NCBI GenBank assembly: GCA_946127115.1
Contig: CAMGYI010000001.1
Location: 662,857 to 726,856, forward strand
Source: an uncultured Chlamydia sp.
Lineage (GTDB): Bacteria; Chlamydiota; Chlamydiia; Chlamydiales; Simkaniaceae
Length of the DNA stretch: 64,000 bases
Reading direction: 5' to 3'
The notes below the pieces were generated by a model, which searched no databases, was not told the DNA's origin, and was given only the letters and a program-made list of their open reading frames with translations. Numbering within the stretch: position 1 is the stretch's first letter; each line of letters opens with the position of its first letter. The position numbers and the translations under genes were made by a program. Positions 3,998 through 28,606 of the stretch are shown here, in pieces.

Positions 3998-4546
3998 CTA
4001 TTTTTGGCAGCGAGTTTCTGCAATTTTTAGATACGAATAGAGAGCAAGATCATACTCTTGATCAGCTAGAGATTCGATCATTACCTTATGGTAATTGAGG
4101 TTTTTTCCTTGTGGAACTCTTTCATCTAACCGGGTTTCCATATGGGAAAGCTCCTTTTCAATATCCCTCTTATGAAGGAGGTAGGAAGTGTCGTACCGAT
4201 AGTGCTCATCATCAACTGAACACTTTACTAATCGACCAAGGGATGAAACAGCATCACCGATTCCTTCCTTGGTCTCACTTCCAATTTTGAAGGAGGCAAT
4301 GAATTTTTTCGCAAGATCAGCAATTTCTGGATTAGGATCCTTTTCATACTGGCGAAGGCGACCGATAAATACACTGTAGGCTCCCGCAATTTTTTCCTCG
4401 TCGATAATGCGAGATTCCTCACTCAAAATTTCAAAGACATCCCCTGTAAAACTGCAAAGATCTTGAGCTCTAGCTCTTTCTTCCATTTCACCTGCAAAGG
4501 CAAGGGCTCCAAGGGCTAAAAAAGCCAATAACCATTTTTTTATCAT
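3998..4546 (-). CDS. Hypothetical secreted protein (182 aa)
   Basis: ORF with a clear N-terminal signal peptide (MIKKWLLAFLALGALAFAGE). No recognised domain. Confidence 0.6.
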   Translation of the reverse strand: MIKKWLLAFLALGALAFAGEMEERARAQDLCSFTGDVFEILSEESRIIDEEKIAGAYSVFIGRLRQYEKDPNPEIADLAKKFIASFKIGSETKEGIGDAVSSLGRLVKCSVDDEHYRYDTSYLLHKRDIEKELSHMETRLDERVPQGKNLNYHKVMIESLADQEYDLALYSYLKIAETRCQK

Positions 4547-6309: not shown

Positions 6310-6772
6310 CAATCCACTCCTTCAATTATTAAGACCGTAGGGCGGCCTATTGCCTGTCATAATATGACAAAAGCTATTTATTATTAAGATGTAAAAAATA
6401 TTTTAATCAAATGCTTTGTATAGCTTCTTAGCGCATTTACAGAGCCTCTACAGAGGAGATCTGTTTTTTAGAAAATGTAGGCAATTACAACTGAGAATGG
6501 GAATAGCTCATTTGGGCCTGTTGCGAACCGGAGGAGTTTTTAGGAAAGATAAACAAAATAACCCCAAGAAAATGGGAAGGCTTTGTAAACGAGTCGCACT
6601 GATAAAGGCTCCAATTAGGTGTTTGAGTAATCAGGATGGTGACTCATCACTATTAGAATTGTCACCAAATATATAGCAACATATGGACCAAGGACCATCT
6701 CGGATATCAGCCAAAAAGAGGTCACGCCAAAGGTTAGGGGTTTTGCATTCATCTCTCTTAAGAGTTAGCATA

Positions 6773-7966
6773 CTACAGAATTAAGTGGAAGACTTCTAAC
6801 CCAACTACAAAGAACGAATAGGCGATCAAAAGAGAAAGAATTCCTTTATTCTCAAGCCAGGCCAAATCAGCTTTGAGTTTCCAGGTGTATTTCCCTACCC
6901 AAAGAATACCTATTGGAAGAAGACCATTGAGAAAAGCCTCCCCGAATCCTCCCGCTATTCCAAGGGCTGTCGTAAATATTCCTGGGTTCAGAGTGGCTAA
7001 AATAAGGGGAGGAATAAAAGTAAGAAGTGTCAAGAGAATACGTCTCCATCCTTTCCTTCTTACGATATTGAATCCATCTCCTAAAAAATCGACCATCGAA
7101 AAAGCAACTCCTAAAGTGGATGTCACGATCGCAAAAAAAGCAAAAAACCGTCCGATTTGGGAAAACCTCTCTTCTCCGGTTACTGAAGAAAATGCTGCTG
7201 TTATCGGCGTCCCTTCTCCCAATGTTTTTGCTATTCCCTCTTGGGGAATAGCTCCAATGATAAGCCATTGCCACACAATATAAACAACCAAGGGCAAAAA
7301 TGATCCCCAAAATACTGCCATTCGGAGTGCGCGCTTATCGCGTTTCAGATAGGTGCAAAGCGAGGGGATCACGTTGTGAAACCCAAAGGCACTGAAAAGA
7401 ACGGGCATTGCCATCAACATGGCAGGCCATTTCGTATAGATCAAGCGGGGCATTTTAACTTCAGAACTCCCACTCCCAATCAGAGCAAACCAAGCAGCAA
7501 TCATAGCAATGCTCATGATGATATTCACCCTATCAATAGACCTAGGACCAATTGCAACTACCGCGCCAAAAACCAACCCAAAAAGGGTGAACATCTTCCA
7601 GCCGCTTACGACCAAACCAAGCGCTGAAACCGCCTCAGCAAGAAGAGGACTCCCCGCCGCAAAATAGGCAATCATTAAGCAGTAGTAGAGAAAAATGAAC
7701 ATGCCTCCAGAGAATAAACGACCCCCTTTCCCAAAGAAGCGCCCTGCAATCGAGAGAACATTGCTCCCATCAGGCATCCATAGAGTGACCTCCAAAAAAA
7801 GGAGACCGGTGCAGTACATAAAAAACCACACAATAAAGGTTGCTACAATCCCAGGAATAAACCCTGAGACACCTGTGACAAGAGGAATGCCGAGCATTCC
7901 CGCTCCAATCATTGTTCCAGCGATAAGAAAAGTGCCGCTGACCACTCTTAATATATTTGTTTTCAT
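6773..7966 (-). CDS. tyrP: Aromatic amino-acid (Tyr/Trp) permease, HAAAP family
   Basis: Polytopic membrane protein of 397 aa. The N-terminal signature 'GTFLIAGTMIGAGMLGIPLVTG' is typical of TyrP/Mtr/TnaB transporters. Confidence 0.85.
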   Translation of the reverse strand: MKTNILRVVSGTFLIAGTMIGAGMLGIPLVTGVSGFIPGIVATFIVWFFMYCTGLLFLEVTLWMPDGSNVLSIAGRFFGKGGRLFSGGMFIFLYYCLMIAYFAAGSPLLAEAVSALGLVVSGWKMFTLFGLVFGAVVAIGPRSIDRVNIIMSIAMIAAWFALIGSGSSEVKMPRLIYTKWPAMLMAMPVLFSAFGFHNVIPSLCTYLKRDKRALRMAVFWGSFLPLVVYIVWQWLIIGAIPQEGIAKTLGEGTPITAAFSSVTGEERFSQIGRFFAFFAIVTSTLGVAFSMVDFLGDGFNIVRRKGWRRILLTLLTFIPPLILATLNPGIFTTALGIAGGFGEAFLNGLLPIGILWVGKYTWKLKADLAWLENKGILSLLIAYSFFVVGLEVFHLIL

Positions 7967-9583: not shown

Positions 9584-10498
9584 TTACTTGGCACTTTCAG
9601 CCAAAGAATTGTAGCAAGTATTCCCCTCGAAGAGAAAATCTTGAATGGTATGAAGTTTTTCGGTGAGATCAGTTTTTTTCTGGAACAATTTTTCAAGACG
9701 CTGCTGAATCATTTCATTTCTTTTTTGGAGATCGCACTGTGGTTTGAGTCTAATGGATTGAGCTTGTTCTTGAAGCTGAATCTCTTCTAGTTCGCAGAGT
9801 TTCTTCCTGTAATCAGGATCAAGCAGTAATTGTGTCTTACCTTCCATATAATACTTACGAGAATTCAGAACAACTCGATAAGAGTCTACGAATAGTGGAA
9901 TTAGATCTTCAATAGAGATCTCTTTGGGATTCAAAAATATTTTATTTACTTCTAATTCGAATTGAAGGGACCTCATTTTATTAAAAATACCAAAAATTTT
10001 CTCATTAAGAACGTCGGCTTTTTGACTTAAAGATCTAACGGCAGCATGGTATGTTTTTAGATCTGCTTGGATTTTATCTGTCATGGAAAAATAAGCTCGA
10101 GTTGAGGATATGACATATTTTTTGCATTTTACAAGAAACGAATCTGTTGGTTTATAAGGACATTCTCCAAGGAGAAGAGGAGAGACTTTGCGGATTGTGA
10201 TTAGTGACTGCTGAGCAATATCTATGAGTGAACCCTCTGGAAATAGACCAACCGCGTAGTCATGTTCTTTGCTATCAAATTCAGAAAATAGTTGGGCTAT
10301 TTCACTAAACTTTGGATCAATTAAAAACTCTGTTTGGGGGCTAATCATTAGCTTTAGATGATTCTCAAACCATATCCTCCTCTTAATAAGCTGTGGATGA
10401 GAATAACATCGATCGAGCTGTTTGTGGAGTTGCTGAAGATTGGTAACAGGTTGCTCTGTATGGAAGAATTGTGGAAAAATTTCTAGAATCTTCTCCAT
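9584..10498 (-). CDS. Hypothetical coiled-coil protein (304 aa), possibly the 3' part of a longer frameshifted gene
   Basis: Long ORF in an AT-rich segment. Its first 115 nt overlap the upstream ORF in another frame. No recognised domain. Confidence 0.5.
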   Translation of the reverse strand: MEKILEIFPQFFHTEQPVTNLQQLHKQLDRCYSHPQLIKRRIWFENHLKLMISPQTEFLIDPKFSEIAQLFSEFDSKEHDYAVGLFPEGSLIDIAQQSLITIRKVSPLLLGECPYKPTDSFLVKCKKYVISSTRAYFSMTDKIQADLKTYHAAVRSLSQKADVLNEKIFGIFNKMRSLQFELEVNKIFLNPKEISIEDLIPLFVDSYRVVLNSRKYYMEGKTQLLLDPDYRKKLCELEEIQLQEQAQSIRLKPQCDLQKRNEMIQQRLEKLFQKKTDLTEKLHTIQDFLFEGNTCYNSLAESAK

Positions 10499-10994
10499 TG
10501 TCCTTTTCCTGTTCTGAGAGAGAAGATAAAAAAACCATTCTTTCCTGAAGGCATACCATTTCAGTGGGGCTTCTTAACAATCGCCCAAGAAAGTAAAAGA
10601 AACTTTTTGCTAGTTTTATGATTCGCCAATCACTCTCTTGATAGCATTTCTCACCAATGAAATTTGGATCAATTTTTCGAAGGCGTGCGATTGTAGATTC
10701 TAGAGTTTCACCTTGGATTGCATTGCAATATGATTCGTAAGTTTCTCTATAGAACTCAAATTTCTCCAAAATATCTGTCTGATTATTAGCTAGTAAGGTT
10801 TTATCATTATTTACTTCATGAATGACAAAAAGAAGTTCGCTTTCAGAAGAGGTGACAAACTTCTCTATTCCATATATATCGTTAACTATTTTTTTTAAAT
10901 TATCGCGCGCTTCTGAAAGCTGATTAAGTGCAATAACTTCGGAACTGAGTTCCGCATGGGAATGGGAATTAAACTTTTTAATTGATTCAATCAT
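10383..10994 (-). CDS. Hypothetical protein (203 aa), possibly the 5' part of the same gene as 9584..10498
   Basis: The ORF starts next to a very AT-rich putative promoter region. The last ~35 codons (STILPYRATCYQSSATPQTARSMLFSSTAY) look non-coding and overlap the better-looking N-terminus of the next ORF. Confidence 0.45.
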   Translation of the reverse strand: MIESIKKFNSHSHAELSSEVIALNQLSEARDNLKKIVNDIYGIEKFVTSSESELLFVIHEVNNDKTLLANNQTDILEKFEFYRETYESYCNAIQGETLESTIARLRKIDPNFIGEKCYQESDWRIIKLAKSFFYFLGRLLRSPTEMVCLQERMVFLSSLSEQEKDNGEDSRNFSTILPYRATCYQSSATPQTARSMLFSSTAY

Positions 10995-11291
10995 AATATT
11001 ATAAAACCAATAATATTTATATTATTATAACATAAACTTAACTATAATATAATGTTATTAATGCATTATTACAAACAGCTGAATATCAGTTCAATAAATG
11101 CATAAATTTAATATACAGGGCTTTTTTTTTGCCACCTTCAGACAAGTTTATTTTTTATCTATTTATTGCACTTCATGGTTGAAAGAGCCATCTTTTAACT
11201 GTCTTTGATTTAAGAAAAAATTCTCATATCTTTTTTCACGCCACCACAAGCAAACTCTTCGCTATCTGTTGCGAATAATTTTCTATTTCAT

Positions 11292-18286: not shown

Positions 18287-19422
18287 TTTTTTCCTCCTTT
18301 AAATTCAAAGTCATGATCGAAAAAAGCTAAGATTGCCTCATAATAGGCATTTGCCACATCAATCACTCTTTGGGGACAAGGAATTCCGTCTACCACTTCA
18401 TCATTCCTTGATAAGTTAATGAGCTCCTTTTCATTATTCTGAATAAGCGTCTCTCCATAGCATATGGGGCTTTTAATCAATCGAGTGATGCAAAGGTTTC
18501 TACTAAATACTCCATTAGCTTCCAATAGACTATTATGAACAGGGGATGTGAAAGGAAAAACCTTTAGATGCTTAGAAAACATATCCACAAGCATGTGAGC
18601 AAGCTGCATGGAACCTTCAAGATCTTGGGTACAGATTAAACGCAAAAAATGAAAGCGATCTTCAGAAGAAGCTAGCTCATTATTGCAAAATGCCCCCGGA
18701 ATAAAAATAAGATTGAAATTGCGATCCGTCGGTTCAATCGTTTCTTTACACCCAACTGTATTATAATGAATCGCAATTGTAAGGTCCGGTTGATACTCAT
18801 TGATAAGTCTCGCCCTTTCTCTCAAATCCAAGCGGTTGTAATGGCGCCTAAAAATCGTTGAAAGAGCTACCCCTTTTTCCCAGTACTCAGGACGCTTTTT
18901 GAGCCAATCAAAAAAATTCTCAGGATAAACTCCTTCACCAACCTTTGTTCGAGTTAAAAAAACTGAGGCTCCTTGCCCTTCAAGCATTTTCTTCAGATGC
19001 ATGGCTGTCAAAAAGGATAAGGTCCCTTCATCAAAATTCACAGAGAGCCCTTCATGTTCCACCTCGATATACCGCTCCTCTAGCCTTGCCCACTTTCCAC
19101 CAAAGTGGCCTGGGTCTATGGCAATCCTTGCAGAGCTTATTGGCTTAACAAGATTAAATTGGGGGTTTGGAAGGTTTTTATCTCCGAAATCAAGACGGTA
19201 TTCGATAACTCCTTCTTTTTTATTCTCTAGAGATGAAAAAATAACAAGCGCATCCTCTTGAATTTCAAAGTAATTCTCTATTTCTTTCGAATACTGAAGG
19301 TAGCAGGAAATTTTATGGGTAACATACTCTTTTGATAGTCTTTCTTGAAAGGGATCGAATTCTGCAAAATCATAGCAGAAGCAATTCACTGTAAACAGAA
19401 GCAGAAGCAGCGGCCATTTCAT
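18283..19422 (-). CDS. Secreted N-acetylmuramoyl-L-alanine amidase-like protein (Amidase_3 / AmiA-C type)
   Basis: Signal peptide MKWPLLLLLFTVNCFC. Motifs are 'IAIDPGHFGG' (cf. IVIDPGHGG), 'VFLTRT', 'PDLTIAIHYN' (cf. ADLFISIH.N) and 'RNLCITRLIKSPICYGETLIQNN' (cf. ..VL.....P.VLVE.GF.SN). ATGA overlaps occur at both ends, with ileS and with ldcA. Confidence 0.6.
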   Translation of the reverse strand: MKWPLLLLLFTVNCFCYDFAEFDPFQERLSKEYVTHKISCYLQYSKEIENYFEIQEDALVIFSSLENKKEGVIEYRLDFGDKNLPNPQFNLVKPISSARIAIDPGHFGGKWARLEERYIEVEHEGLSVNFDEGTLSFLTAMHLKKMLEGQGASVFLTRTKVGEGVYPENFFDWLKKRPEYWEKGVALSTIFRRHYNRLDLRERARLINEYQPDLTIAIHYNTVGCKETIEPTDRNFNLIFIPGAFCNNELASSEDRFHFLRLICTQDLEGSMQLAHMLVDMFSKHLKVFPFTSPVHNSLLEANGVFSRNLCITRLIKSPICYGETLIQNNEKELINLSRNDEVVDGIPCPQRVIDVANAYYEAILAFFDHDFEFKGGKK

Positions 19423-22400
19423 TGTTTTTCAAGCGAAATCACAGCCCGCTCTCCATTTAAATCCCACTCTTCCCCTTGCGTTGCTTCAAACTTCACTTCA
19501 GAAGCTAAAATCTCGCCAATAATATAATTGCGGTACTCCTCAAAACACTTTCTTACGTGAGAAGTGGTATCGATCACCATTTTTACACGATCGGTCACCT
19601 CGAACTGCATATTGCGCCTTTGCGTGTTGACTTTGTTCACAATTTCGCGGGCTAAGCCTTCAAGCCTAAGAGCATCGTCCAGAGTCGTATCAAGCGCAAT
19701 TATCATAGCCCCTTCTGTCGCAGCGACAGATCCCTCCTTAACCTTCCGATCAATGATGATATCCTCTGAGGTAATAGAAAATTTTTCCCCATCAAGATCA
19801 AGTTCATAACTCCCCCCATCGAGTGCACTTGGCTCAAGAACAAGAATCGCTGCTTGCACTTTCTTCATTAGATGTCCAGCACGCCGCCCCAGTGTCTTAA
19901 AGTTAGGTTTGATTGAAATCTCAACAAACTTCTTTTCATCGCTGTGATATTCAACAGCTCCTACATTGAGTTCATCCAAAATTAGATTCTCTTGGCCTTT
20001 AAGAAGTTTAATCACCCGAGGGTCACTAGAAATTAAGTGAACCTTTGGCAGAGGTTGACGCACTTTCAATTTGTGCTCTTTTCTCAAAGCGTGCCCCACA
20101 CTAACAGCCGATTGCACTGAAGCCATCTCTTCTTCAAGAACCTCGTTGCGCCATGTTGCATCATAGCTCGGGAAATCGCAAAGATGGACAGAAATCGGGT
20201 CTTCTTTTGTTCGAAGGTTCTGATAAATTGCGTCACTAATAAAGGGAATAAACGGCGCTGCCACTTTTGACAACTGAAACACCACCGTATAAAGAGTCTG
20301 AAATGCTTCCGCTCGGTCATCTGTCTCCTCATTAGACCAGAATCGCCCCCGATTCCTCCGGATATACCAGTTGGTAAGCTCTTCGATAAAATCAACAAAT
20401 GGATCGACAGCCTGACTGAGTGAGTAAACATCCATCCCTTTTTCAACATCCAAAATCAATTTCTGCAACTTTGAAAGGATCCATCTGTCGATATCACACT
20501 TAGGCTTCAATCCATCTGGTTTCCACTTATAGATATTTGCATACGTCGCTAAAAACACATAAGAGTTCCATAGAGGAATCAAAAACTGGCGAAGCACCAA
20601 TTCCACCCCTCTCTCAGCAAAACGAATATCCTCTCCCTGAACTACAGGGCTATGGAGCATATAGAGGCGCGCTGCATCAGCGCCATATTTATTTATCACA
20701 AGCTCTGGATCGGGATAATTCCTCAGCCGCTTCGACATCTTCGCCCCATCCTCGGCTAAGATAATCCCGTTCACAATCACATTTTTAAATGCAGGCTTAT
20801 CAAATAATGCTGTCGATAAGATATTGAGCGTGTAAAACCACGCCCGCGTCTGGTCAAGCCCTTCAGCAATGAAGTCCGAGGGAAAGGCATCGAGAGTCTC
20901 TTTTTCATTCTCGAAGGGATAATGATTCTGTGCATAGGGCATCGATCCTGACTCAAACCAACAATCAAATACTTCGCTTACTCTCGTAAAAACTTTCCCG
21001 TTTTCTTCAAAAGTCAATGTATCGATGTGATGACGATGAAGATCTTTGACCGTTTTACCTGTCCGTTTTTCGAGCTCTTCAACGCTACTGATAATAATGA
21101 TATCTCCATCCTGACTTCTCCATAGAGGAATTGGCGTTCCCCAATAACGATTCCGACTAATCGCCCAGTCCCGAGCATTTTCAAGCCATTTTCCAAAACG
21201 ACCATGTTTCAAGTGCGTTGGAACCCAATGGATATGCTCATTATTCCGCACGATCTTATCTTTGATCTTTTCAACCGCAACAAACCATGTACTTACAGCC
21301 TTATAAATCAGAGGCGTGTCAGAACGCCAACAGAAGGGGTAACTGTGACGGATCGTTCCTTGATGAAAAAGACGTCCCTTCTCTTTGATTTTTTTGATCA
21401 ATCCTTTATCAGCATCTTTCACAAACTTCCCTTCAAATTCAGGAAGTTCAGCAGTAAATTTTCCATTCTGATCAACAGGACAAACAAGACCAATACCTGC
21501 ATTTTTACAGGCAAAAAAGTCAACCTCACCAAACGCTGGTGAAGAGTGAACAATCCCCGTTCCTGCATCTTCAGTGATTGAATCTTCACCAATCACTGAA
21601 AAGCTACTTGAGCCCGCTTCCTTGACAAAGTAATCAAACATCGGCTGATAACGCTTTCCGATAAGAGCCTTCCCTTTGAAAGTATCGATGATTTCATAAC
21701 CATCCTTGAAATAGGTTTCTATGCGCCCTTTCCCCAAGATGTAAAATTTTCCATCCTTTTGAACTTTAACATAATCAAGTTCCCTCCCCACCATAACCGC
21801 TAAATTCGAAGGAAGAGTCCAAGGGGTTGTTGTCCATATCAACAGAGACGTTTCTGGATCATCAATTAATGGAAAGCTAACCGTAATCGATGGATCGTCC
21901 ACGTCCTGATAATTCAAATTTGCTTCGAAATTAGAGAGGGGAGTTCCAAGCTGTGCTGAGAAGGGCATCACTTTATACCCTTCATAAACAAGTCCTTGCT
22001 TCCATAGTTCCCCAAAAACCCACCAAACAGTCTCCATAAACGTAAGATTCATCGTCATATAAGTCTTGTCAAAATCAACCCATCGACCCATCCGGTTGAC
22101 TGTTTTCTTCCATTCTTTTGAATAACGCATCACGATACTGCGACACTCTTCATTGAATTTTGCGATTCCAAATTGTTCAATATCTGCCGCTCCAGAAAGC
22201 TCCAGAGCTTTTTCTATTTCCATTTCAACAGGAAGGCCGTGAGTGTCCCATCCAAAACGACGGGGCACTCGGTATCCTTTCATCGTCTTATAACGGGGAA
22301 CCACATCTTTAATCGTCCCGGCAAGCAGATGTCCATAATGAGGGAGCCCCGTTGCAAACGGAGGACCATCATACATAGAAAACAGAGGAGCATCTTTGCG

Positions 22401-22496
22401 CCTATCTATTGACTTCTTGAAGACTTTTTCCTTATCCCAAAGAGCCTGTATCCGTTCTTCTCTTTCTGGAAAACTTTCCTTGCGATTTTCAAACAT
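19419..22496 (-). CDS. ileS: Isoleucyl-tRNA synthetase, eukaryote-like (type 2) form
   Basis: HIGH motif 'PHYGHLLAG', 'WDTHGLP', KMSKS 'KMSKRLRN', about 1025 aa. The ATG at 22496 is preferred over the TTG at 22502. Confidence 0.95.
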   Translation of the reverse strand: MFENRKESFPEREERIQALWDKEKVFKKSIDRRKDAPLFSMYDGPPFATGLPHYGHLLAGTIKDVVPRYKTMKGYRVPRRFGWDTHGLPVEMEIEKALELSGAADIEQFGIAKFNEECRSIVMRYSKEWKKTVNRMGRWVDFDKTYMTMNLTFMETVWWVFGELWKQGLVYEGYKVMPFSAQLGTPLSNFEANLNYQDVDDPSITVSFPLIDDPETSLLIWTTTPWTLPSNLAVMVGRELDYVKVQKDGKFYILGKGRIETYFKDGYEIIDTFKGKALIGKRYQPMFDYFVKEAGSSSFSVIGEDSITEDAGTGIVHSSPAFGEVDFFACKNAGIGLVCPVDQNGKFTAELPEFEGKFVKDADKGLIKKIKEKGRLFHQGTIRHSYPFCWRSDTPLIYKAVSTWFVAVEKIKDKIVRNNEHIHWVPTHLKHGRFGKWLENARDWAISRNRYWGTPIPLWRSQDGDIIIISSVEELEKRTGKTVKDLHRHHIDTLTFEENGKVFTRVSEVFDCWFESGSMPYAQNHYPFENEKETLDAFPSDFIAEGLDQTRAWFYTLNILSTALFDKPAFKNVIVNGIILAEDGAKMSKRLRNYPDPELVINKYGADAARLYMLHSPVVQGEDIRFAERGVELVLRQFLIPLWNSYVFLATYANIYKWKPDGLKPKCDIDRWILSKLQKLILDVEKGMDVYSLSQAVDPFVDFIEELTNWYIRRNRGRFWSNEETDDRAEAFQTLYTVVFQLSKVAAPFIPFISDAIYQNLRTKEDPISVHLCDFPSYDATWRNEVLEEEMASVQSAVSVGHALRKEHKLKVRQPLPKVHLISSDPRVIKLLKGQENLILDELNVGAVEYHSDEKKFVEISIKPNFKTLGRRAGHLMKKVQAAILVLEPSALDGGSYELDLDGEKFSITSEDIIIDRKVKEGSVAATEGAMIIALDTTLDDALRLEGLAREIVNKVNTQRRNMQFEVTDRVKMVIDTTSHVRKCFEEYRNYIIGEILASEVKFEATQGEEWDLNGERAVISLEKQ

Positions 22497-22620
22497 AATC
22501 AACCTTATCTACAAATAGGGAAGTTTACGATTCCCCTGTATAATAATCAATACTTGTCTCAATACATCCAACCTGTTAACATTGAGGTGCCTTGAACTCA
22601 AATATTTGATGGTCAGGGTG

Positions 22621-22656: not shown

Positions 22657-23072
22657 GGGGGTGCATTGGTTTCGACTTAGAAGCAAAGTACCGATGGCAT
22701 GCAGAGGATTCGGTTGGCCTCTTAAAAAAGCCGAGACGACATAACTGTCAAAAAATCAAATGTTGTAAGCATTGCTTCTCACGCTGGTTTTACTAGCGAA
22801 GTTGCGACTGCTGCGGCTGCTGCTTAAGACCTAACCCGTCTTTGTAGCCGACCCTCTAAGATTGGACCAGGGATCTTGGAAAGGTCGTCATAGATCTTGG
22901 TATGAGCACTGCCACTTGACTTCCAGAGGTAGTGTTTTCGAGATTAAAGGAAGTGTGCAGGCCTCTAGTGGGGTTCCTTGCAGCAAGGCTTGCACTATAA
23001 ATTAAGGGACTAAGCATGTAGGCATCGTTATAGAGTTTACTAAGGACGAGAGTTCGAATCTCTCCACCTCCA
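22657..23072 (+). ncRNA. ssrA: tmRNA (SsrA)
   Basis: The 5' GGGGGUGCAUUGGUUUCGAC... pairs with the 3' ...CACCUCC-A, including G3:U. T-arm GGACGAGAGUUCGAAUCUCUCC. The 5' module (..UUUCGACUUAGAA..GCAUGC.GAGG..GGCCUC.UAAAAAGCCGA) closely resembles chlamydial tmRNAs as I recall them. The internal tag frame ends ...SHAGFTSEVATAAAAA with TAA at 22825-22827. CCA is not encoded. Confidence 0.9.
23053..23072 (+). repeat. Direct repeat copy 1 (3' end of ssrA, putative attL core)
   Basis: ttcgaatctctccacctcca is identical to 23820..23839. Confidence 0.85.
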
Positions 23073-23819
23073 ATTAACTTTAAGGCTTTACTTTTCGGAG
23101 TGAAGCCTTTTATTTCCTTTCGACAGGAATTTTAGAATCTCCTTGAGATCTTTAATCACCTTCTCTATTTTACCATAGAGAAGGGCGACTCAGTTTATCT
23201 GTCACCCAATACTCTGCCTCAGGAGTCTTTGTTTTGGTGAAAGATATAGGCTCCCTTACACAAGTATTCCATGATGTGGTAGATATCAATGATGGTTACT
23301 AACTACGGTAAATATATTTTGATCAACTCGCGCAATTTATGTTCTCCGTCTACAAGCGCTACACTGGGCTTTTTCTTTTCTGAATCTCTTTTAAGAGCTT
23401 CTTTCTTTAGCCCCAAAAAACCAGCTTCCTTACTCTCTAATATGGCCTGGAGCACTTTTTTGGGAGATGGAGCTGCTTTCCCTCTCGAGCCCCTTTGGAC
23501 AAAAAATCCTCGAGGTTTCTCTTGTTAGGAACACCCTTATATACTCCTACGAAGGTAGACATCCTTTTTCTTCCCAAGTTTTTTGTTTTTTTTAATACCA
23601 TCGGACTTTTTTCTCCGTTCTCGACCTCATGCAGCTGCTGATTTTGATCTTCTCCTTGGATATAGGACAAAACTTGTTCGAATTGCACCCGTGCTTGTGT
23701 TAATAAGTTGGTCCATAATATTTCGTTGTAATATTATTTTTTGCTAAAAAACTTATACTCGGAGTATTTTTTACGATTATGTTATGCGCTTTCATGTGGT
23801 TTAACATGATGACAGAGAA
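23073..23819. mobile_element. Degenerate remnant of an element integrated into the 3' end of ssrA
   Basis: Bounded by the 20-nt direct repeat. Minus-strand frames contain transposase-like debris, for example 'VALVDGEHKLRELIKIYLP*..IIDIYHIMEYLCKGAYIFHQNKDSEAEYWVTDKL'. This resembles the DG..W......P....ILD.YH..E.LWK....F motif of ISKra4-type transposases. No intact ORF of convincing quality. Confidence 0.5.
23082..23120 (+). terminator. Hairpin plus T-rich tract downstream of ssrA
   Basis: aaggctttac (23082-23091) pairs with gtgaagcctt (23100-23109): 10 bp with one G-U and an 8-nt loop, followed by ttatttccttt. Confidence 0.55.
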
Positions 23820-23839
23820 TTCGAATCTCTCCACCTCCA
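23820..23839 (+). repeat. Direct repeat copy 2 (orphan ssrA 3' end, putative attR core)
   Basis: ttcgaatctctccacctcca is 20/20 identical to the genuine tmRNA 3' end. Upstream similarity continues imperfectly (agaG vs agaA). Confidence 0.85.
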
Positions 23840-23843
23840 TAAT

Positions 23844-23870
23844 AAAAACCGGGTTTTATCCGGTTTTTTT
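23844..23870 (+). terminator. Rho-independent terminator following the orphan ssrA 3' end
   Basis: aaaaaccgg, loop gttttat, ccggttttttt. A perfect stem followed by a T run, probably the ancestral ssrA terminator. Confidence 0.6.
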
Positions 23871-23961
23871 ATTCGAAAAAGAGATTTGAATTGAATAAAA
23901 CCCCCTGTTATTTAACAATTTCGCCAAATATTCTTTATTTTCTTGGAAATATGAGGTTTCA

Positions 23962-25098
23962 GTGCGACTATTTGTCCTAGTGCTCTTTCTTTTTATACGC
24001 CCCTTGTTAGCAACCTATGTTGTGGTATTGGGTGAAGAAAGTCTCGACAAAAAGCACAGGCTGCAACTCTTTAACTTGTTACTTCGTGGCGAACCTCCAC
24101 GCGTATATTACGAATCAACTTTAACTAACATCGAGATCGAATGTCAAAGAATTAGCCCTTCTATACACATAGAGTGGATCCCCCCGGCTCTTTGGCAACT
24201 TGCCGCTTTACATTCTTTTTTCCTTGACCATGACATTCAAAAAGGAATTTTGAAGTGTTCAGGAGTTGGGTGGCAACCAATTTCATACGATGAAATGCTT
24301 CATTTGCATTTACCTTTTGCCACTAGCCTCGAAGAAGTCGTTGGGGTTTTTGATAGACAAACCCTTTATATACCAGAGCTTTGTGATCTATTTTTCAAAG
24401 TCAATCAAGCAATAGCTTCTCTTTACAAGCGTTCCGGCGGTTCTAACTTAGAAATGATACGCCAAGCAATATCCGAGCTTCCCCCATTCGGCGAATGGGA
24501 GGCTAGGGGTTTTCCCTTCTGGAAGTCTCCATGGATCTATAACCCTCAATCAGCAGAAATTTTCTATAATGCTTTGACAAATGAAGATTTTTTTTCAAAA
24601 CTCGTGGAGATTGAATGTATTGCAAACAAAAAGGGAGAATGGGTGCTTTATCGAGGATACAGTGGACCCGGCTATCCCAACACCCTTGAGGGAGGAAGAA
24701 CAAATAGCCATGCTCTCTCATTTGGCTCAACTCTTCTTGGCGGCGTTTTTTTCTCTCTAGAAGCCTGTGCTTTAACATATTCAATGCCAGACCCCACCTC
24801 CCCCCATAGCTTCTTAGCCCTAAGGGTCACTCCTCAAGAATTCGATGAAGTATTTCGAGCTGGTCCCCTCCACCCTTTTGTTCAAATGATTGTAGATGGA
24901 GAGATGTTTCATGCACATACGAAACTAGGGACAGACAAATTAAAATCGTTTAATGAGCAACCCACTAATGGTTACTTCATGAAGTGCAACAAAAACTGCG
25001 TTGACCCAGTAGGCTATATCATGTCTCTCAGAAAAACGCCTAGAGATCTACAGGCGATTTTTCATTCTCTTTGTGAAAAGTCAGGCCATATTTTTTAG
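23962..25098 (+). CDS. Hypothetical secreted protein (378 aa)
   Basis: GTG start, hydrophobic leader MRLFVLVLFLFIRPLLA. No confident domain (see the finding on a weak R-S-E-like motif spacing). Confidence 0.55.
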   Translation: MRLFVLVLFLFIRPLLATYVVVLGEESLDKKHRLQLFNLLLRGEPPRVYYESTLTNIEIECQRISPSIHIEWIPPALWQLAALHSFFLDHDIQKGILKCSGVGWQPISYDEMLHLHLPFATSLEEVVGVFDRQTLYIPELCDLFFKVNQAIASLYKRSGGSNLEMIRQAISELPPFGEWEARGFPFWKSPWIYNPQSAEIFYNALTNEDFFSKLVEIECIANKKGEWVLYRGYSGPGYPNTLEGGRTNSHALSFGSTLLGGVFFSLEACALTYSMPDPTSPHSFLALRVTPQEFDEVFRAGPLHPFVQMIVDGEMFHAHTKLGTDKLKSFNEQPTNGYFMKCNKNCVDPVGYIMSLRKTPRDLQAIFHSLCEKSGHIF

Positions 25099-25357
25099 AA
25101 AGGGATGCAAAATTTAAAAAAGACTTTAGGTGTATTTCTTAACAAATTCTGACTCGAGCATTATTTCACCAACTCCCCTACCTTTGGCGTCAATATTGTG
25201 ACCATTTACCTCTTCGACTAAACGAATATTCTTAACTTTAACCCCAATCCTAAGGATTAAAGAAGTTGCTTTTGCATCAGGATACTTTTCTATCTATCTT
25301 CAAATGGGCATCTCTTAAAATTAATCAGACGATAGAAATATTAAAGCACATCCATCC

Positions 25358-26369
25358 CTATTTAACGCCTTTAGGGCTAAAATGATTAGAAACCCAAAGA
25401 CACGTTTGCTTCCAAGCGTTTTGATCTTGTGAGATAAATTCTTGTGTATATTTGATAAGATTATTTATTTGCTTGTAATCATCAAGTGCAATCGATTTTG
25501 GTAAATGAAAGTCTATCTTCTTGTACCTATCCCCAAGTAATTTAGCACAGGCTTGACCGGAAGACTGCTCCTCAACATCCAGAAGCAAATTTAAAAGAGG
25601 TAAAGCACTATTTTGTTGAGAACCCGTTGCTAACCATTTGATATAGCCCCAATCTTCATCCCCTGCTATGAACTTTTCATTATACCCAGTCCCAATCGAA
25701 AGTAAGACAAATTCTCTTAAATCACTTTCTTGAGGATCGTACGCAAACATCACCGCAGCTAAAGAGTCCCATGCCCCCGTCAACATGCCCATCCTTTGAA
25801 GAGAAGTAAATAGGGGCTGCTGTTGTTTCCAAAAGAGCATCAACAACCGAGATATTTCCTCTGCCGGGTTCGAGGTTTTCTTGAAAATCTAATTTCCATC
25901 TATTGGTTTGAGGGTCATCTAAATTAACAGTCGGAATCACGACTTTCTTCGGAAGGTCTCGAACTAAAATATCTTCGCTTAACCTGCATTTTCTAAGTAG
26001 TTTTTTTAAATCGTTTTGGAGTTTTTTTTGGTTATATTTTGGATGAAATAAAGAGATGAAACTTGAACTAGGATCAGAAAAAACATCAGAACTCATTTTT
26101 TCATAGTCTTCCAAGAGCTCATCAATACTGAACCCACATGCGAGAAAAACAGCAATCACAGCTCCTGTTGAAGTGCCCGAATATACATCAATATCTTTAT
26201 GAAATTGGATACCAGTATCTTTCTCTAACTTTCGAAGCAATTCGAGAGAGCAGACTCCTCGAACCCCTCCTCCATCAAATGTTAAAATTCGAGTCTCTTT
26301 TCCATAGGTATAAAATGAAGTCGAGCAAAAAGCTGCAAGCAAAAATGGGTAGATAAGCTTCCGAAACAT
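25358..26369 (-). pseudogene. Patatin-like phospholipase, frameshifted
   Basis: AAGGAG lies 8 nt upstream of ATG 26369 and the leader is MFRKLIYPFLLAAFC. Motifs: oxyanion 'FDGGGVRG', nucleophile 'GTSTGA', catalytic Asp 'HVDGGMG'. Immediately after this the frame is lost at the C5 run 25774-25778 (G5 in the sense strand). The family-like continuation 'AWDSLAAVMFAYDP...LLSIGTG' is in the +1 frame (ORF 25358..25846). Confidence 0.8.
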
Positions 26370-26552
26370 ATAATTTTCTCCTTTATGAAAGAAAGTACGT
26401 TCTAGATAAAACATCTGCAGTTAACCATAAACTTTCTTTAAATGCAAAATTGGGACCACGATAGTTTCAACTAGAAACGGGACAACCTCCAATTTTTAGA
26501 TGGTGTCTTCTTGTATCGACTGCAAAAAATCTGTTAAAAATTTGTAGAGTAC

Positions 26553-28127
26553 TTATCCTAGTTTGTCAGATGCTACGTGATAATCGGGATCTTCTAATAC
26601 ATTGGTCTCGACCATATCCCCTGCTCTACCTAAGAGCTCCTTGCATTCTGGGCTGAGATGACGAAGGTGCAAGTTTTTACCCAGAGCCATATAGCGTTCG
26701 GTAATAAATTGTATGGCTTCAATCGCCGAGTGATCAGTTACCCGCGCATGCATAAAGTCAATAATCACTTCTTTCGGGTCGCCTTTTATCTCAAACAAGG
26801 TTTTGAATTGCGATACAGAGCCAAAAAACAGTGGTCCATGCAGCATATATTCTTTTGCACCCTTGGTATTGATTTTCTTCTCGGCATAAATATTTTTTGC
26901 AGTATCCCACGCGAAAACTAATGCAGCAATAATCACCCCCATGACAACCGCAACGGCCAAATTGGTAAAAACCGTGACCAAAGTCACCAAGGCTATAATA
27001 AAAGCGTCGTGCTTAGGGATTTTACGAATAAATTTAAACGTTGTCCATTCAAAGGTTGCAATCACCACCATAAACATCACACCTACAAGAGCTGCCAAAG
27101 GAATTAGCTTAATGACTGGCCAAAGGAAAATAATAAAAACAAAGAGCGTGATCCCAGCAACAATTCCTGAAAATCTACCACGCCCCCCTGAATTAATATT
27201 AATCATGCTCTGCCCCAGCATTGCGCAACCGCCCATTCCCTTACAGAAACCAGAAACAACATTGCCAAGACCTTGAGCGATACACTCCTTGTTGGCTCGA
27301 CCCCTGGTATAGGTCATTTCATCAATAAGTGACAAAGTCATTAACGACTCAGAAATTCCAATAATACACAGTGTAATGGCATAGGGAATGATGACCGCAA
27401 AAGCATTGAAACTCAGTGGAATCTTTAGCCAAGCAACAGTCGGGAATGCTGCAGAGACTTGCTCTCCTCCCATCATATCATCAACCACACGAGTATCTAA
27501 GTTAAAAAGATGTACCAGTGTTGAAACAAGAACAATTGCAACTAGGGCAGACGGTACTTTCTTGGTAAATTTTGGTAAAAAATGGGTAACCGCCATAGCA
27601 ACAATGATTAGCCCAATCATTAAGTACAAAGGATTCCCTGTTAACCAAACTGTCTCGCCATCTCCGGTGACTTTAAACTGCTCTAACTGCGCCAAGAAAA
27701 TAACAATTGCTAAACCATTCACAAAACCTACCATCACAGGTTTAGGCAAAATACGAATGAGTTTACCAAGACGGAATACACCCACTAATATCTGAAAAAT
27801 ACCTGTTAGCACCACAGTTGCAAATAGATATTCAACTCCATATTGGATGACTAAAGAGACAATAACCACTGCCATCGCACCCGTTGCACCCGAAATCATT
27901 CCGGGCCGACCACCGAATATCGCAGTAATAATGCACATAAAAAATGCTGAAAATAATCCCACCAATGGGTCAAGATGGGCCACCAGTGCAAATGCAATTG
28001 ATTCAGGAATGAGAGCCAAGGCAACGGTAAGCCCGGAGAAAAAATCAATATTCCATTTCCCCTCAAAAGGCATGAGGAATTTCTTAACACTTTGTATCAT
28101 TGGCGTCCAAGCTGAGGGTTTATACAT
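26553..28127 (-). CDS. SulP-family anion (sulfate/bicarbonate) permease with a C-terminal STAS domain
   Basis: 524 aa and polytopic, with SulP-like segments ('GLTVALALIPESIAFA', 'GISESLMT', 'ECIAQGLGNVVSGFCKGMGGCA'). The cytoplasmic STAS-like tail is 'VIIDFMHARVTDHSAIEAI'. Confidence 0.9.
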   Translation of the reverse strand: MYKPSAWTPMIQSVKKFLMPFEGKWNIDFFSGLTVALALIPESIAFALVAHLDPLVGLFSAFFMCIITAIFGGRPGMISGATGAMAVVIVSLVIQYGVEYLFATVVLTGIFQILVGVFRLGKLIRILPKPVMVGFVNGLAIVIFLAQLEQFKVTGDGETVWLTGNPLYLMIGLIIVAMAVTHFLPKFTKKVPSALVAIVLVSTLVHLFNLDTRVVDDMMGGEQVSAAFPTVAWLKIPLSFNAFAVIIPYAITLCIIGISESLMTLSLIDEMTYTRGRANKECIAQGLGNVVSGFCKGMGGCAMLGQSMININSGGRGRFSGIVAGITLFVFIIFLWPVIKLIPLAALVGVMFMVVIATFEWTTFKFIRKIPKHDAFIIALVTLVTVFTNLAVAVVMGVIIAALVFAWDTAKNIYAEKKINTKGAKEYMLHGPLFFGSVSQFKTLFEIKGDPKEVIIDFMHARVTDHSAIEAIQFITERYMALGKNLHLRHLSPECKELLGRAGDMVETNVLEDPDYHVASDKLG

Positions 28128-28606
28128 AAAAATAGGACGGTCATGCTATACAAAATCACAATTCCATGGAAGGGGATAGTTTTGTAAATCATTTATTTTG
28201 AACGATCGAGTTTCTGCCACAACTTGTAAATAGCAAGGGCTTCATCATCTGGATGATGTTTCTACGCGATTTTCGAGAATTTCCAATTTCCTTTATAAGA
28301 AATTTAGAAAAGTCAAGCACTTCCGATTATCCACATAAATACAATCTTCTCTGGACTGCATCAGTCCGTGGCAGCGAGCTGCATCAGGCAAAGATGGACA
28401 AGATTTTCTCTTATGTAAGCGCTCATGCAATGGGAATATCCACGGATTTGATATTTTCCATGGACACTCACATCCTATAGCCCCTCCCTTTTTTCTTTGA
28501 AAACCTTCCAGATTAGATACCAACTGCTTAGTTGTTACTACAAAACCACCTTGACATAAAAGGAAATTCGACTCATGATTTCTCGAAATATTAAACGGGA
28601 TTAATT

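Follow-up and report, generated by a model that had tools for sequence, protein, structure and literature searches.

A repeated tmRNA gene 3′ end as the likely attachment-site scar of a lost integrative element in an uncultured chlamydia

Genomic islands that integrate site-specifically carry a fragment of their target gene at the attachment site of the element (attP); integration splits the gene, the fragment of the element restores it, and the regenerated gene and the displaced fragment then mark the two ends of the island (Hudson, Lau & Williams 2015, PMC4383910). No target is more strongly enriched than the transfer-messenger RNA (tmRNA) gene, ssrA, and integration often falls in the T-stem region, a canonical sublocation (PMC4383910). 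The nearest published parallel to the locus described here is the group of ssrA islands of Dehalococcoides, which insert within the T-loop and have 20-bp direct repeats of the ssrA 3′ end, each directly preceded by a short motif without counterpart in ssrA; tandem arrays occur, as do units that lack an integrase (McMurdie et al. 2011, PMC3146451). The concept of cis-mobilizable elements (CIMEs), which are att-flanked remnants without recombination genes, is cited in the same work (PMC3146451). The stretch of DNA in this study, referred to as the window, comprises 64,000 nucleotides from an uncultured Chlamydia sp. of the Simkaniaceae, and its ssrA gene is followed by a second, displaced copy of its own 3′ end. 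We consider it very probable that a tyrosine-integrase element once integrated site-specifically at the 3′ end of ssrA and that these two copies are its attL and attR cores.

The window holds a single tmRNA gene according to both ARAGORN, which gives its tag as VKKSNVVSIASHAGFTSEVATAAAAA, and Rfam, in which the match to RF00023 is full length with 148 bits against a gathering score of 47. The last 20 nt of this gene, TTCGAATCTCTCCACCTCCA, are found exactly twice in the 64 kb, at 23053–23072 and 23820–23839, both on the forward strand, just as the initial annotation had described, and BLAST lengthens the repeat by five bases to the left, giving 24/25 identical positions. The distal copy sits 767 bases downstream of the real end of ssrA, and 742 bp lie between the repeats. 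When placed in the Rfam alignment, the 25-nt block takes in the T-loop (TTCGAAT) with both T-stem strands, of which the 5′ one reads GAGAG, as well as the 3′ acceptor strand and the discriminator, with the single mismatch at the final base of the 5′ T-stem strand, and it ends exactly at the last base of ssrA, with a sharp edge on both sides. As direct repeats, the two copies cover precisely the part of the tmRNA gene that begins with the T-stem and runs to its 3′ end.

The sequence between the repeats had been described as transposase-like debris without an integrase, which agrees with the content found. When its frame pieces are spliced, the transposase-like part matches the ISKra4-family profile NCBIfam NF033572 (E = 1.4e-9) over profile positions 200–307 of 422; with 37.6 bits against a cut-off of 205, and with frameshifts and stops, it is a fragment of a member of this insertion sequence (IS) family and not a functional member, and both IS ends are missing. 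Pfam gave weak MULE/ISL3 DDE matches and no integrase in the open reading frame (ORF) pieces of the interval, tblastn with chlamydial ssrA integrases gave no integrase in the whole window, and no second copy of the ISKra4 fragment is present in the window. The relic is unable to move by itself, and the scar has no evident function.

Compared with the islands of the Islander study (PMC4383910), the window shares an intact target gene with a displaced direct fragment running from the T-stem to the 3′ end, as well as an arrangement in which the element would have restored the gene and supplied the sequence after it. A full-length tmRNA gene lies at one end and a direct 24/25 fragment that reaches the 3′ end lies at the other, but there is no integrase, and in place of an island-sized interval with foreign genes there are 742 bp with one terminator and one IS fragment. 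The window would fail the Islander integrase filter and, we assume, the length filter too, and the locus is a relic, not an island. It differs further in its host, which is an environmental chlamydia. The likeness to CIMEs lies in the two direct att cores, intact at 20/20 positions, which flank integrase-less DNA.

Evidence that the same core serves as an attachment site was found in other Chlamydiota. An exact-match scan for the 20-mer with one genome per species gave 45 loci, mostly tmRNA genes of Chlamydiota (Simkaniaceae, Rhabdochlamydiaceae and Parachlamydiales) along with some of Bacteroidales. One locus, L066, is a complete 13.2-kb island with both ends in the same locus, in which the identity block begins in the T-stem (AGAGTTCG...), like that of the window. 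The integrase of L066 lies downstream of ssrA in the same direction, as it does in L038 and L062, which resembles CP4-57 of E. coli K-12, the classic ssrA island, with intA just downstream of ssrA. In a Parachlamydiales contig, the tmRNA gene (L046) is accompanied by a tmRNA-less copy of the 20-mer (L054; 21 nt with the preceding G), with a PF00589 tyrosine integrase (E = 2.6e-27) about 2 kb inside the tmRNA-less copy. A second metagenome-assembled genome (MAG) (L050 and L047) contains a homologous element, again with a core copy without a tmRNA beside a PF00589 integrase, and its integrase is 74% identical to that of L054. These islands support the attL/attR arrangement proposed in the initial annotation, since the same core bounds integrase-bearing islands, and they bear out its expectation that the att core would be the one used by related intact elements. 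With the L054 integrase as query, more than 2000 homologues were found at E below 1e-30; the genomic context was looked up for four, all of which lie within 10 kb of ileS, and a tmRNA gene was confirmed beside the three with DNA available, the fourth being P0077.

Decayed elements occur at the same gene as well. The relic in L025 is 6.4 kb long and holds an AbiE-type toxin–antitoxin pair without an integrase, that in L017 is 2.9 kb long, and L030 contains, only about 250 nt past its tmRNA gene, a mini-relic (4286–4340) in which a degenerate tmRNA 3′ end, GGACGAGAGTTCGAATCTCGAACGCCTCCA, has a second terminator of its own. In L054, a third, longer degenerate copy lies at 2130–2179 on the reverse strand, about 1 kb beyond the second with one ORF between them; it matches the tmRNA 3′ end at 27/30 positions by BLAST and at about 45/50 by eye, and is evidence of successive integrations at one gene. 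The sequence ATCCCTG directly precedes the copy in L054, L047 and L025, and is a junction common to one element family; it may be compared with the short non-ssrA motif upstream of each Dehalococcoides repeat (PMC3146451), and the tandem and integrase-less units are likewise shared with that system. The Dehalococcoides islands differ in their use of a serine recombinase (DsiB) (PMC3146451), whereas the chlamydial integrases are tyrosine recombinases (PF00589).

The closest relatives of the window's ssrA were found in two complete genomes, L044 (CP073762.1, Simkaniaceae bacterium M30B2) and the sister genome L038 (OZ247587.1, Ca. Neptunochlamydia sp.), with tmRNA identities to the window of 96.2 and 95.4%, respectively; the outgroup L053 shares 87.3%, and four metagenome contigs (L055–L058) share 79–87% over ileS and the tmRNA gene. 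The ileS–ssrA arrangement is kept in nearly all retrieved Chlamydiota loci, and while ileS on the left is constant, the right flank of ssrA differs among all relatives examined. It holds another small gene, IS5-like genes and what reads in the sequence as an aminoglycoside-phosphotransferase-like gene in L044, an IS630-like fragment and other genes in L053, and DabA/DabB-like genes or a cold-shock gene in L055–L058. In L038, an integrase pseudogene begins 417 nt after the tmRNA gene, keeping the N-terminal 237 codons at 76% identity to the L054 integrase, with one in-frame stop, before it is cut off. No second exact core copy is present in the complete genomes L044 and L038. The view of ssrA as an integration hotspot in this lineage, also put forward in the initial annotation, is supported by the L038 pseudogene together with the variable right flanks beside a conserved ileS, and site-specific integration into ssrA would explain why the right flank is different in every relative examined.

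A repeated heptamer, TTACGCA-N4-TTACGCA, is found in 11 of 66 loci, and only in those with the ssrA integrase family or its remnants. It lies either 60–120 nt inwards from an att end or, in inverted orientation, some 130 nt before the integrase gene (Table 1), which suggests arm-type integrase binding sites and probably also an operator. In L066, the motif is found with a terminator hairpin on the tmRNA-proximal, element side, and in L038 and L062, the hairpin and the motif lie between the tmRNA gene and the integrase. Two architectures can be told apart: in type 1 (L066, L062 and the remnant in L038), the integrase lies close to the tmRNA gene and is directed away from it, and in type 2 (L054 with L046, L047 with L050, and L064/L065), it is at the far end and points towards the tmRNA. 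Both types belong to one integrase family, with about 75% identity, and the arm motifs keep their orientation relative to the integrase in both, so it is the tmRNA core that is inverted relative to the arms between the types. The nearly palindromic target in the T-arm, GAGAG-TTCGAAT-CTCTC, may have allowed this inversion of the core.

A separate observation on the same region is that L018, L041, L044, L038 and L062 share a conserved AAATTC...AAATTC..CTGCGTAAAGCTCA...TTACGCA... in the first ~120 nt after the ssrA terminator. This sequence spans three chlamydial families and is independent of the type of terminator, and Rfam at permissive thresholds gave no match over the conserved post-terminator sequence in the relatives. 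We read it as the proximal arm of the element, although it could also be a conserved native sequence or a small RNA.

The window contains two intrinsic terminators that differ in kind, one directly after the tmRNA gene (type A) and one after the distal copy (type B). The latter had been noted in the initial annotation and was found as a hairpin with a run of seven T at 23844–23868 (−11.8 kcal/mol). The claim that the hairpin of the functional gene is the weaker of the two did not hold in terms of energy, as the 12-bp type A hairpin, which was also found by a terminator scan, is the stronger (−15.2 kcal/mol, z = −4.7), although the T-run of type B is cleaner. The 43 nt after the window's tmRNA are 84–86% identical to L044 and L038 and 70–74% identical to the intact islands L062 and L066. 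Homology to L044 and L038 stops at 23115, just past the T-tract of the hairpin, and these two share about 130 nt more, a stretch that includes the TTACGCA-N4-TTACGCA motif. Because it resembles the arms of the islands, the homology ends at 23115 and the motif beyond is absent, the preferred reading of the type A hairpin is that it represents the initial 43 nt of the arm of the element next to the tmRNA, the rest of which would have been deleted.

As to type B, the tmRNA of the outgroup L053 is directly followed by a type-B-like terminator, to which the flank of the distal copy is identical at 31/42 positions, and type B also follows the distal copies in L025 and L054. Together with the logic of integration and the position of the type-A-like hairpin on the element side in L066, this makes it likely that type B is the native ssrA terminator and that what lies beyond the distal copy is the flank originally present in the host.

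Under the integration model, the attP of the element would have contained a duplicate of the final part of the tmRNA gene, starting at the T-stem and complete to the last base, with the type A terminator of the element itself behind it. Strand exchange in the T-loop region would have joined the host tmRNA body to the 3′ end of the element, leaving the gene intact and now terminated by the type A hairpin, and the original 3′ end of the host with its type B terminator would have been pushed to the far side of the element. The element would have been of the L066/L062/L038 type (type 1), and its integration may predate the divergence of the window, L044 and L038 lineages or have occurred separately in each of them. 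An ISKra4-type IS would later have entered the element, after which at least two deletions would have taken away both IS ends along with the integrase, arm motifs and entire cargo, so that 742 bp are left. A tmRNA body joined directly to TAATAAAAACCGGG is the junction that would be expected on loss of 767 bp by recombination between the repeats. The missing arm motifs argue against recombination of the att pair in trans.

Several observations weigh against this reconstruction. The integrase, arm motif and cargo are all gone from the window, so the element is not directly identifiable; TTACGCA-N4-TTACGCA gave no matches in the window with up to two mismatches, and 23660–23814 showed no significant similarity to the distal arms of L066, L054, L047, L025 or L017. 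Of the two site configurations whose discovery had been proposed as a check, an occupied site with a full island was found (L066), as was a type-B-like terminator after the outgroup tmRNA; a strict empty site, with the window's right flank directly after the tmRNA, was not found among the relatives examined, and the homologue in L059 of the first gene to the right of the scar, which encodes a 378-aa protein, is not adjacent to ssrA. The match to L053 is short, and convergence of simple terminators is possible. Type A follows the distal copy in L047 and L017, which means that the type of terminator alone is not diagnostic of the native one; an earlier element displaced by a later one could account for these cases. 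L055–L058 carry a third kind of hairpin, which further reduces certainty about the native terminator.

The alternative that best survives accepts that integration happened and takes type A as the native terminator of the clade, in which case the distal copy and type B would be either the proximal end of another element that was lost later (tandem accretion) or foreign chlamydial DNA acquired by recombination. The two nearest relatives and three other families have type A after their tmRNA genes, the L047 and L017 distal copies fit this explanation, and tandem arrays do exist, as in L054 with its three copies. A native type A is, however, at odds with the element-side position of the type-A-like hairpin and arm motif in L066, where both ends are present, and with their position between the tmRNA gene and the integrase in L038 and L062; for tandem accretion, no third core copy is present in the 64-kb window even with three mismatches. 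This alternative is therefore regarded as unlikely.

That the 3′ part of ssrA was duplicated locally in tandem and then decayed, with no mobile element involved, is improbable to a much greater degree. L017 does have a longer duplication, of about 133 nt of the tmRNA 3′ part, yet the similarity in the window breaks off sharply at the T-stem on one side and at the final base of the gene on the other, the flanks of the two copies are unrelated, the interval holds IS debris, and integrase-bearing islands use the same boundaries. A longer decayed duplication was considered and rejected, as Smith-Waterman alignment of 100 nt upstream and downstream of both copies gave nothing beyond the 25 nt that was better than shuffles. 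The exact bounds at the T-stem and last base, with no similarity outside them, point to an att identity block and not to a decayed gene duplication.

Slightly less credible again is the possibility that the distal copy belongs to a small RNA or regulatory element that has a function, such as a tRNA-like structure ending in a terminator of its own. The clean terminator after the copy would suit such an RNA, and in a 101-nt fold around the copy the T-arm is still able to form locally; against this, the fold is only marginally above shuffles (z = −2.2), ARAGORN and Rfam (E up to 1) gave no tRNA, tmRNA or RNA family over the distal copy, and the copy is absent from the nearest relatives. A chance match or assembly artefact can be dismissed, since 0.02 matches to TTCGAATCTCTCCACCTCCA with up to three mismatches are expected by chance, none of 100 shuffles gave two or more, and an assembly from an independent run (L061, Logan SRR12599209; 99.3% identity over 23534–28293) contains the distal copy and its terminator.

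As for the element responsible, the window shares the att core with the chlamydial type 1 and type 2 islands, its 43 nt are similar to the proximal arm of type 1, the regenerated tmRNA has a type-A-like hairpin behind it and its block starts in the T-stem as in L066, but it lacks the PF00589 integrase of the L054/L066 family, the arm motif and the primase/helicase cargo, and its distal arm is dissimilar. It is possible, if somewhat doubtful, that the scar is a decayed local member of a widespread ssrA-targeting element family of environmental Chlamydiota, with elements of roughly 9–13 kb that encode a tyrosine integrase, then a conserved 370–420-aa protein with no known domain and a DUF927 or Toprim/AAA_25 primase-helicase, and that carry heptamer arm motifs in mirror architectures.

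No paper on ssrA-integrated elements in Chlamydiae or chlamydia-related genera was found in the literature, although this does not show that there is none. Both the host lineage and the family of elements may be new; the kind of scar, with the tDNA plus displaced fragment signature, is known. Site-specific ssrA integration appears to have shaped the genomes of many environmental chlamydiae, this Neptunochlamydia-like Simkaniaceae member among them, and the att core can be pinned to the part of the tmRNA gene between the start of the T-stem and the 3′ end, with intact integrase-bearing elements that use it identified. A native integrase with a defined chromosomal target could be useful for obligate intracellular bacteria that are hard to manipulate, and if the element family is real, its members would be natural vehicles of gene flow into such bacteria and candidates for use as tools in chlamydial genetics. 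Of greater interest than the scar is the element family with its two mirror architectures, which lies outside the window.

Other copies of the tmRNA end were also seen. Two chlamydial MAGs share a structure just after the ssrA terminator (L016 1780–1935 and L026 3638–3790), which consists of an inverted, split copy of the tmRNA end, TGGAGGTG...GAGAGATTCGA, and a direct 13–15-nt copy, TCTCTCCACCTCCA, 163 nt downstream of the gene. The variant junction AGAGAATTCGAATCTCTCCACC gave no matches in IMG/VR. The viral contigs L001 and L003–L009 from IMG/VR, together with L036, contain about 60 nt resembling the 3′ end of the Bacteroidales tmRNA, with the identical 20-nt core followed by CTAA. The last 29 nt of the Bacteroidales tmRNA are shared with the chlamydial tmRNA, and the sequence in these contigs is probably the attP of phages that integrate into Bacteroidales ssrA.

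Table 1. Positions of features in the window, in the complete island L066, and of the TTACGCA-N4-TTACGCA motif in other loci.
Sequence	Feature	Position	Strand	Remarks
Window	ileS (isoleucyl-tRNA synthetase)	19419–22502	−	1027-aa ORF; conserved left neighbour of ssrA
Window	tmRNA gene (ssrA), intact	22657–23072	+	ARAGORN and Rfam; with the arm to its right, putative attL
Window	Proximal att identity block	23048–23072	+	Placed by BLAST and Rfam alignment
Window	Type A intrinsic terminator	23073–23122	+	Stem 23082–23109, T-rich tract to about 23122; putative remnant of the tmRNA-proximal arm of the element
Window	ISKra4-family transposase pseudogene fragment	23170–23700	−	Middle part only, in three frames, with internal stops
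Window	AT-rich non-coding stretch	23701–23814		Possible remnant of the distal arm of the element
Window	Distal att block	23815–23839	+	24/25, last 20 nt exact; putative displaced native ssrA 3′ end (attR)
Window	Type B intrinsic terminator	23844–23875	+	After the distal copy; putative original ssrA terminator
Window	Conserved chlamydial hypothetical protein, 378 aa	23962–25098	+	First gene right of the scar; outside the relic
L066	tmRNA gene	6380–6789		Followed by a type-A-like hairpin
L066	Integrase	10001–11098		Same direction as tmRNA; DUF927 primase-helicase and other genes follow
L066	Repeat of the tmRNA end	6766–6800 and 20000–20034		34/35
L038	Motif	2815		
L044	Motif	543		
L046	Motif	5034		
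L047	Motif	1989, 4248		
L050	Motif	75		
L054	Motif	3211, 5070		
L062	Motif	8571, 9850, 21010		
L064	Motif	2038, 9244		
L066	Motif	6887, 9844, 19866		

To the right of the scar, the 378-aa protein has 52 homologues at about 43–57% identity and no Pfam domain. Between its gene and a patatin-like phospholipase gene, the sequence at 25127–25256 (reverse strand) is 85% identical to L053 1–130; it reads as the C-terminal end of a gene without a start codon in the window, thus a further gene fragment, and is the sole match between the right flanks of the window and L053. The patatin-like phospholipase gene itself (25358–26414, reverse strand) is split in the window into the overlapping ORFs 25358–25846 and 25722–26414, and as it is an intact 340-aa gene in the 99.3%-identical L061, the split reflects either a recent frameshift or a sequencing error.

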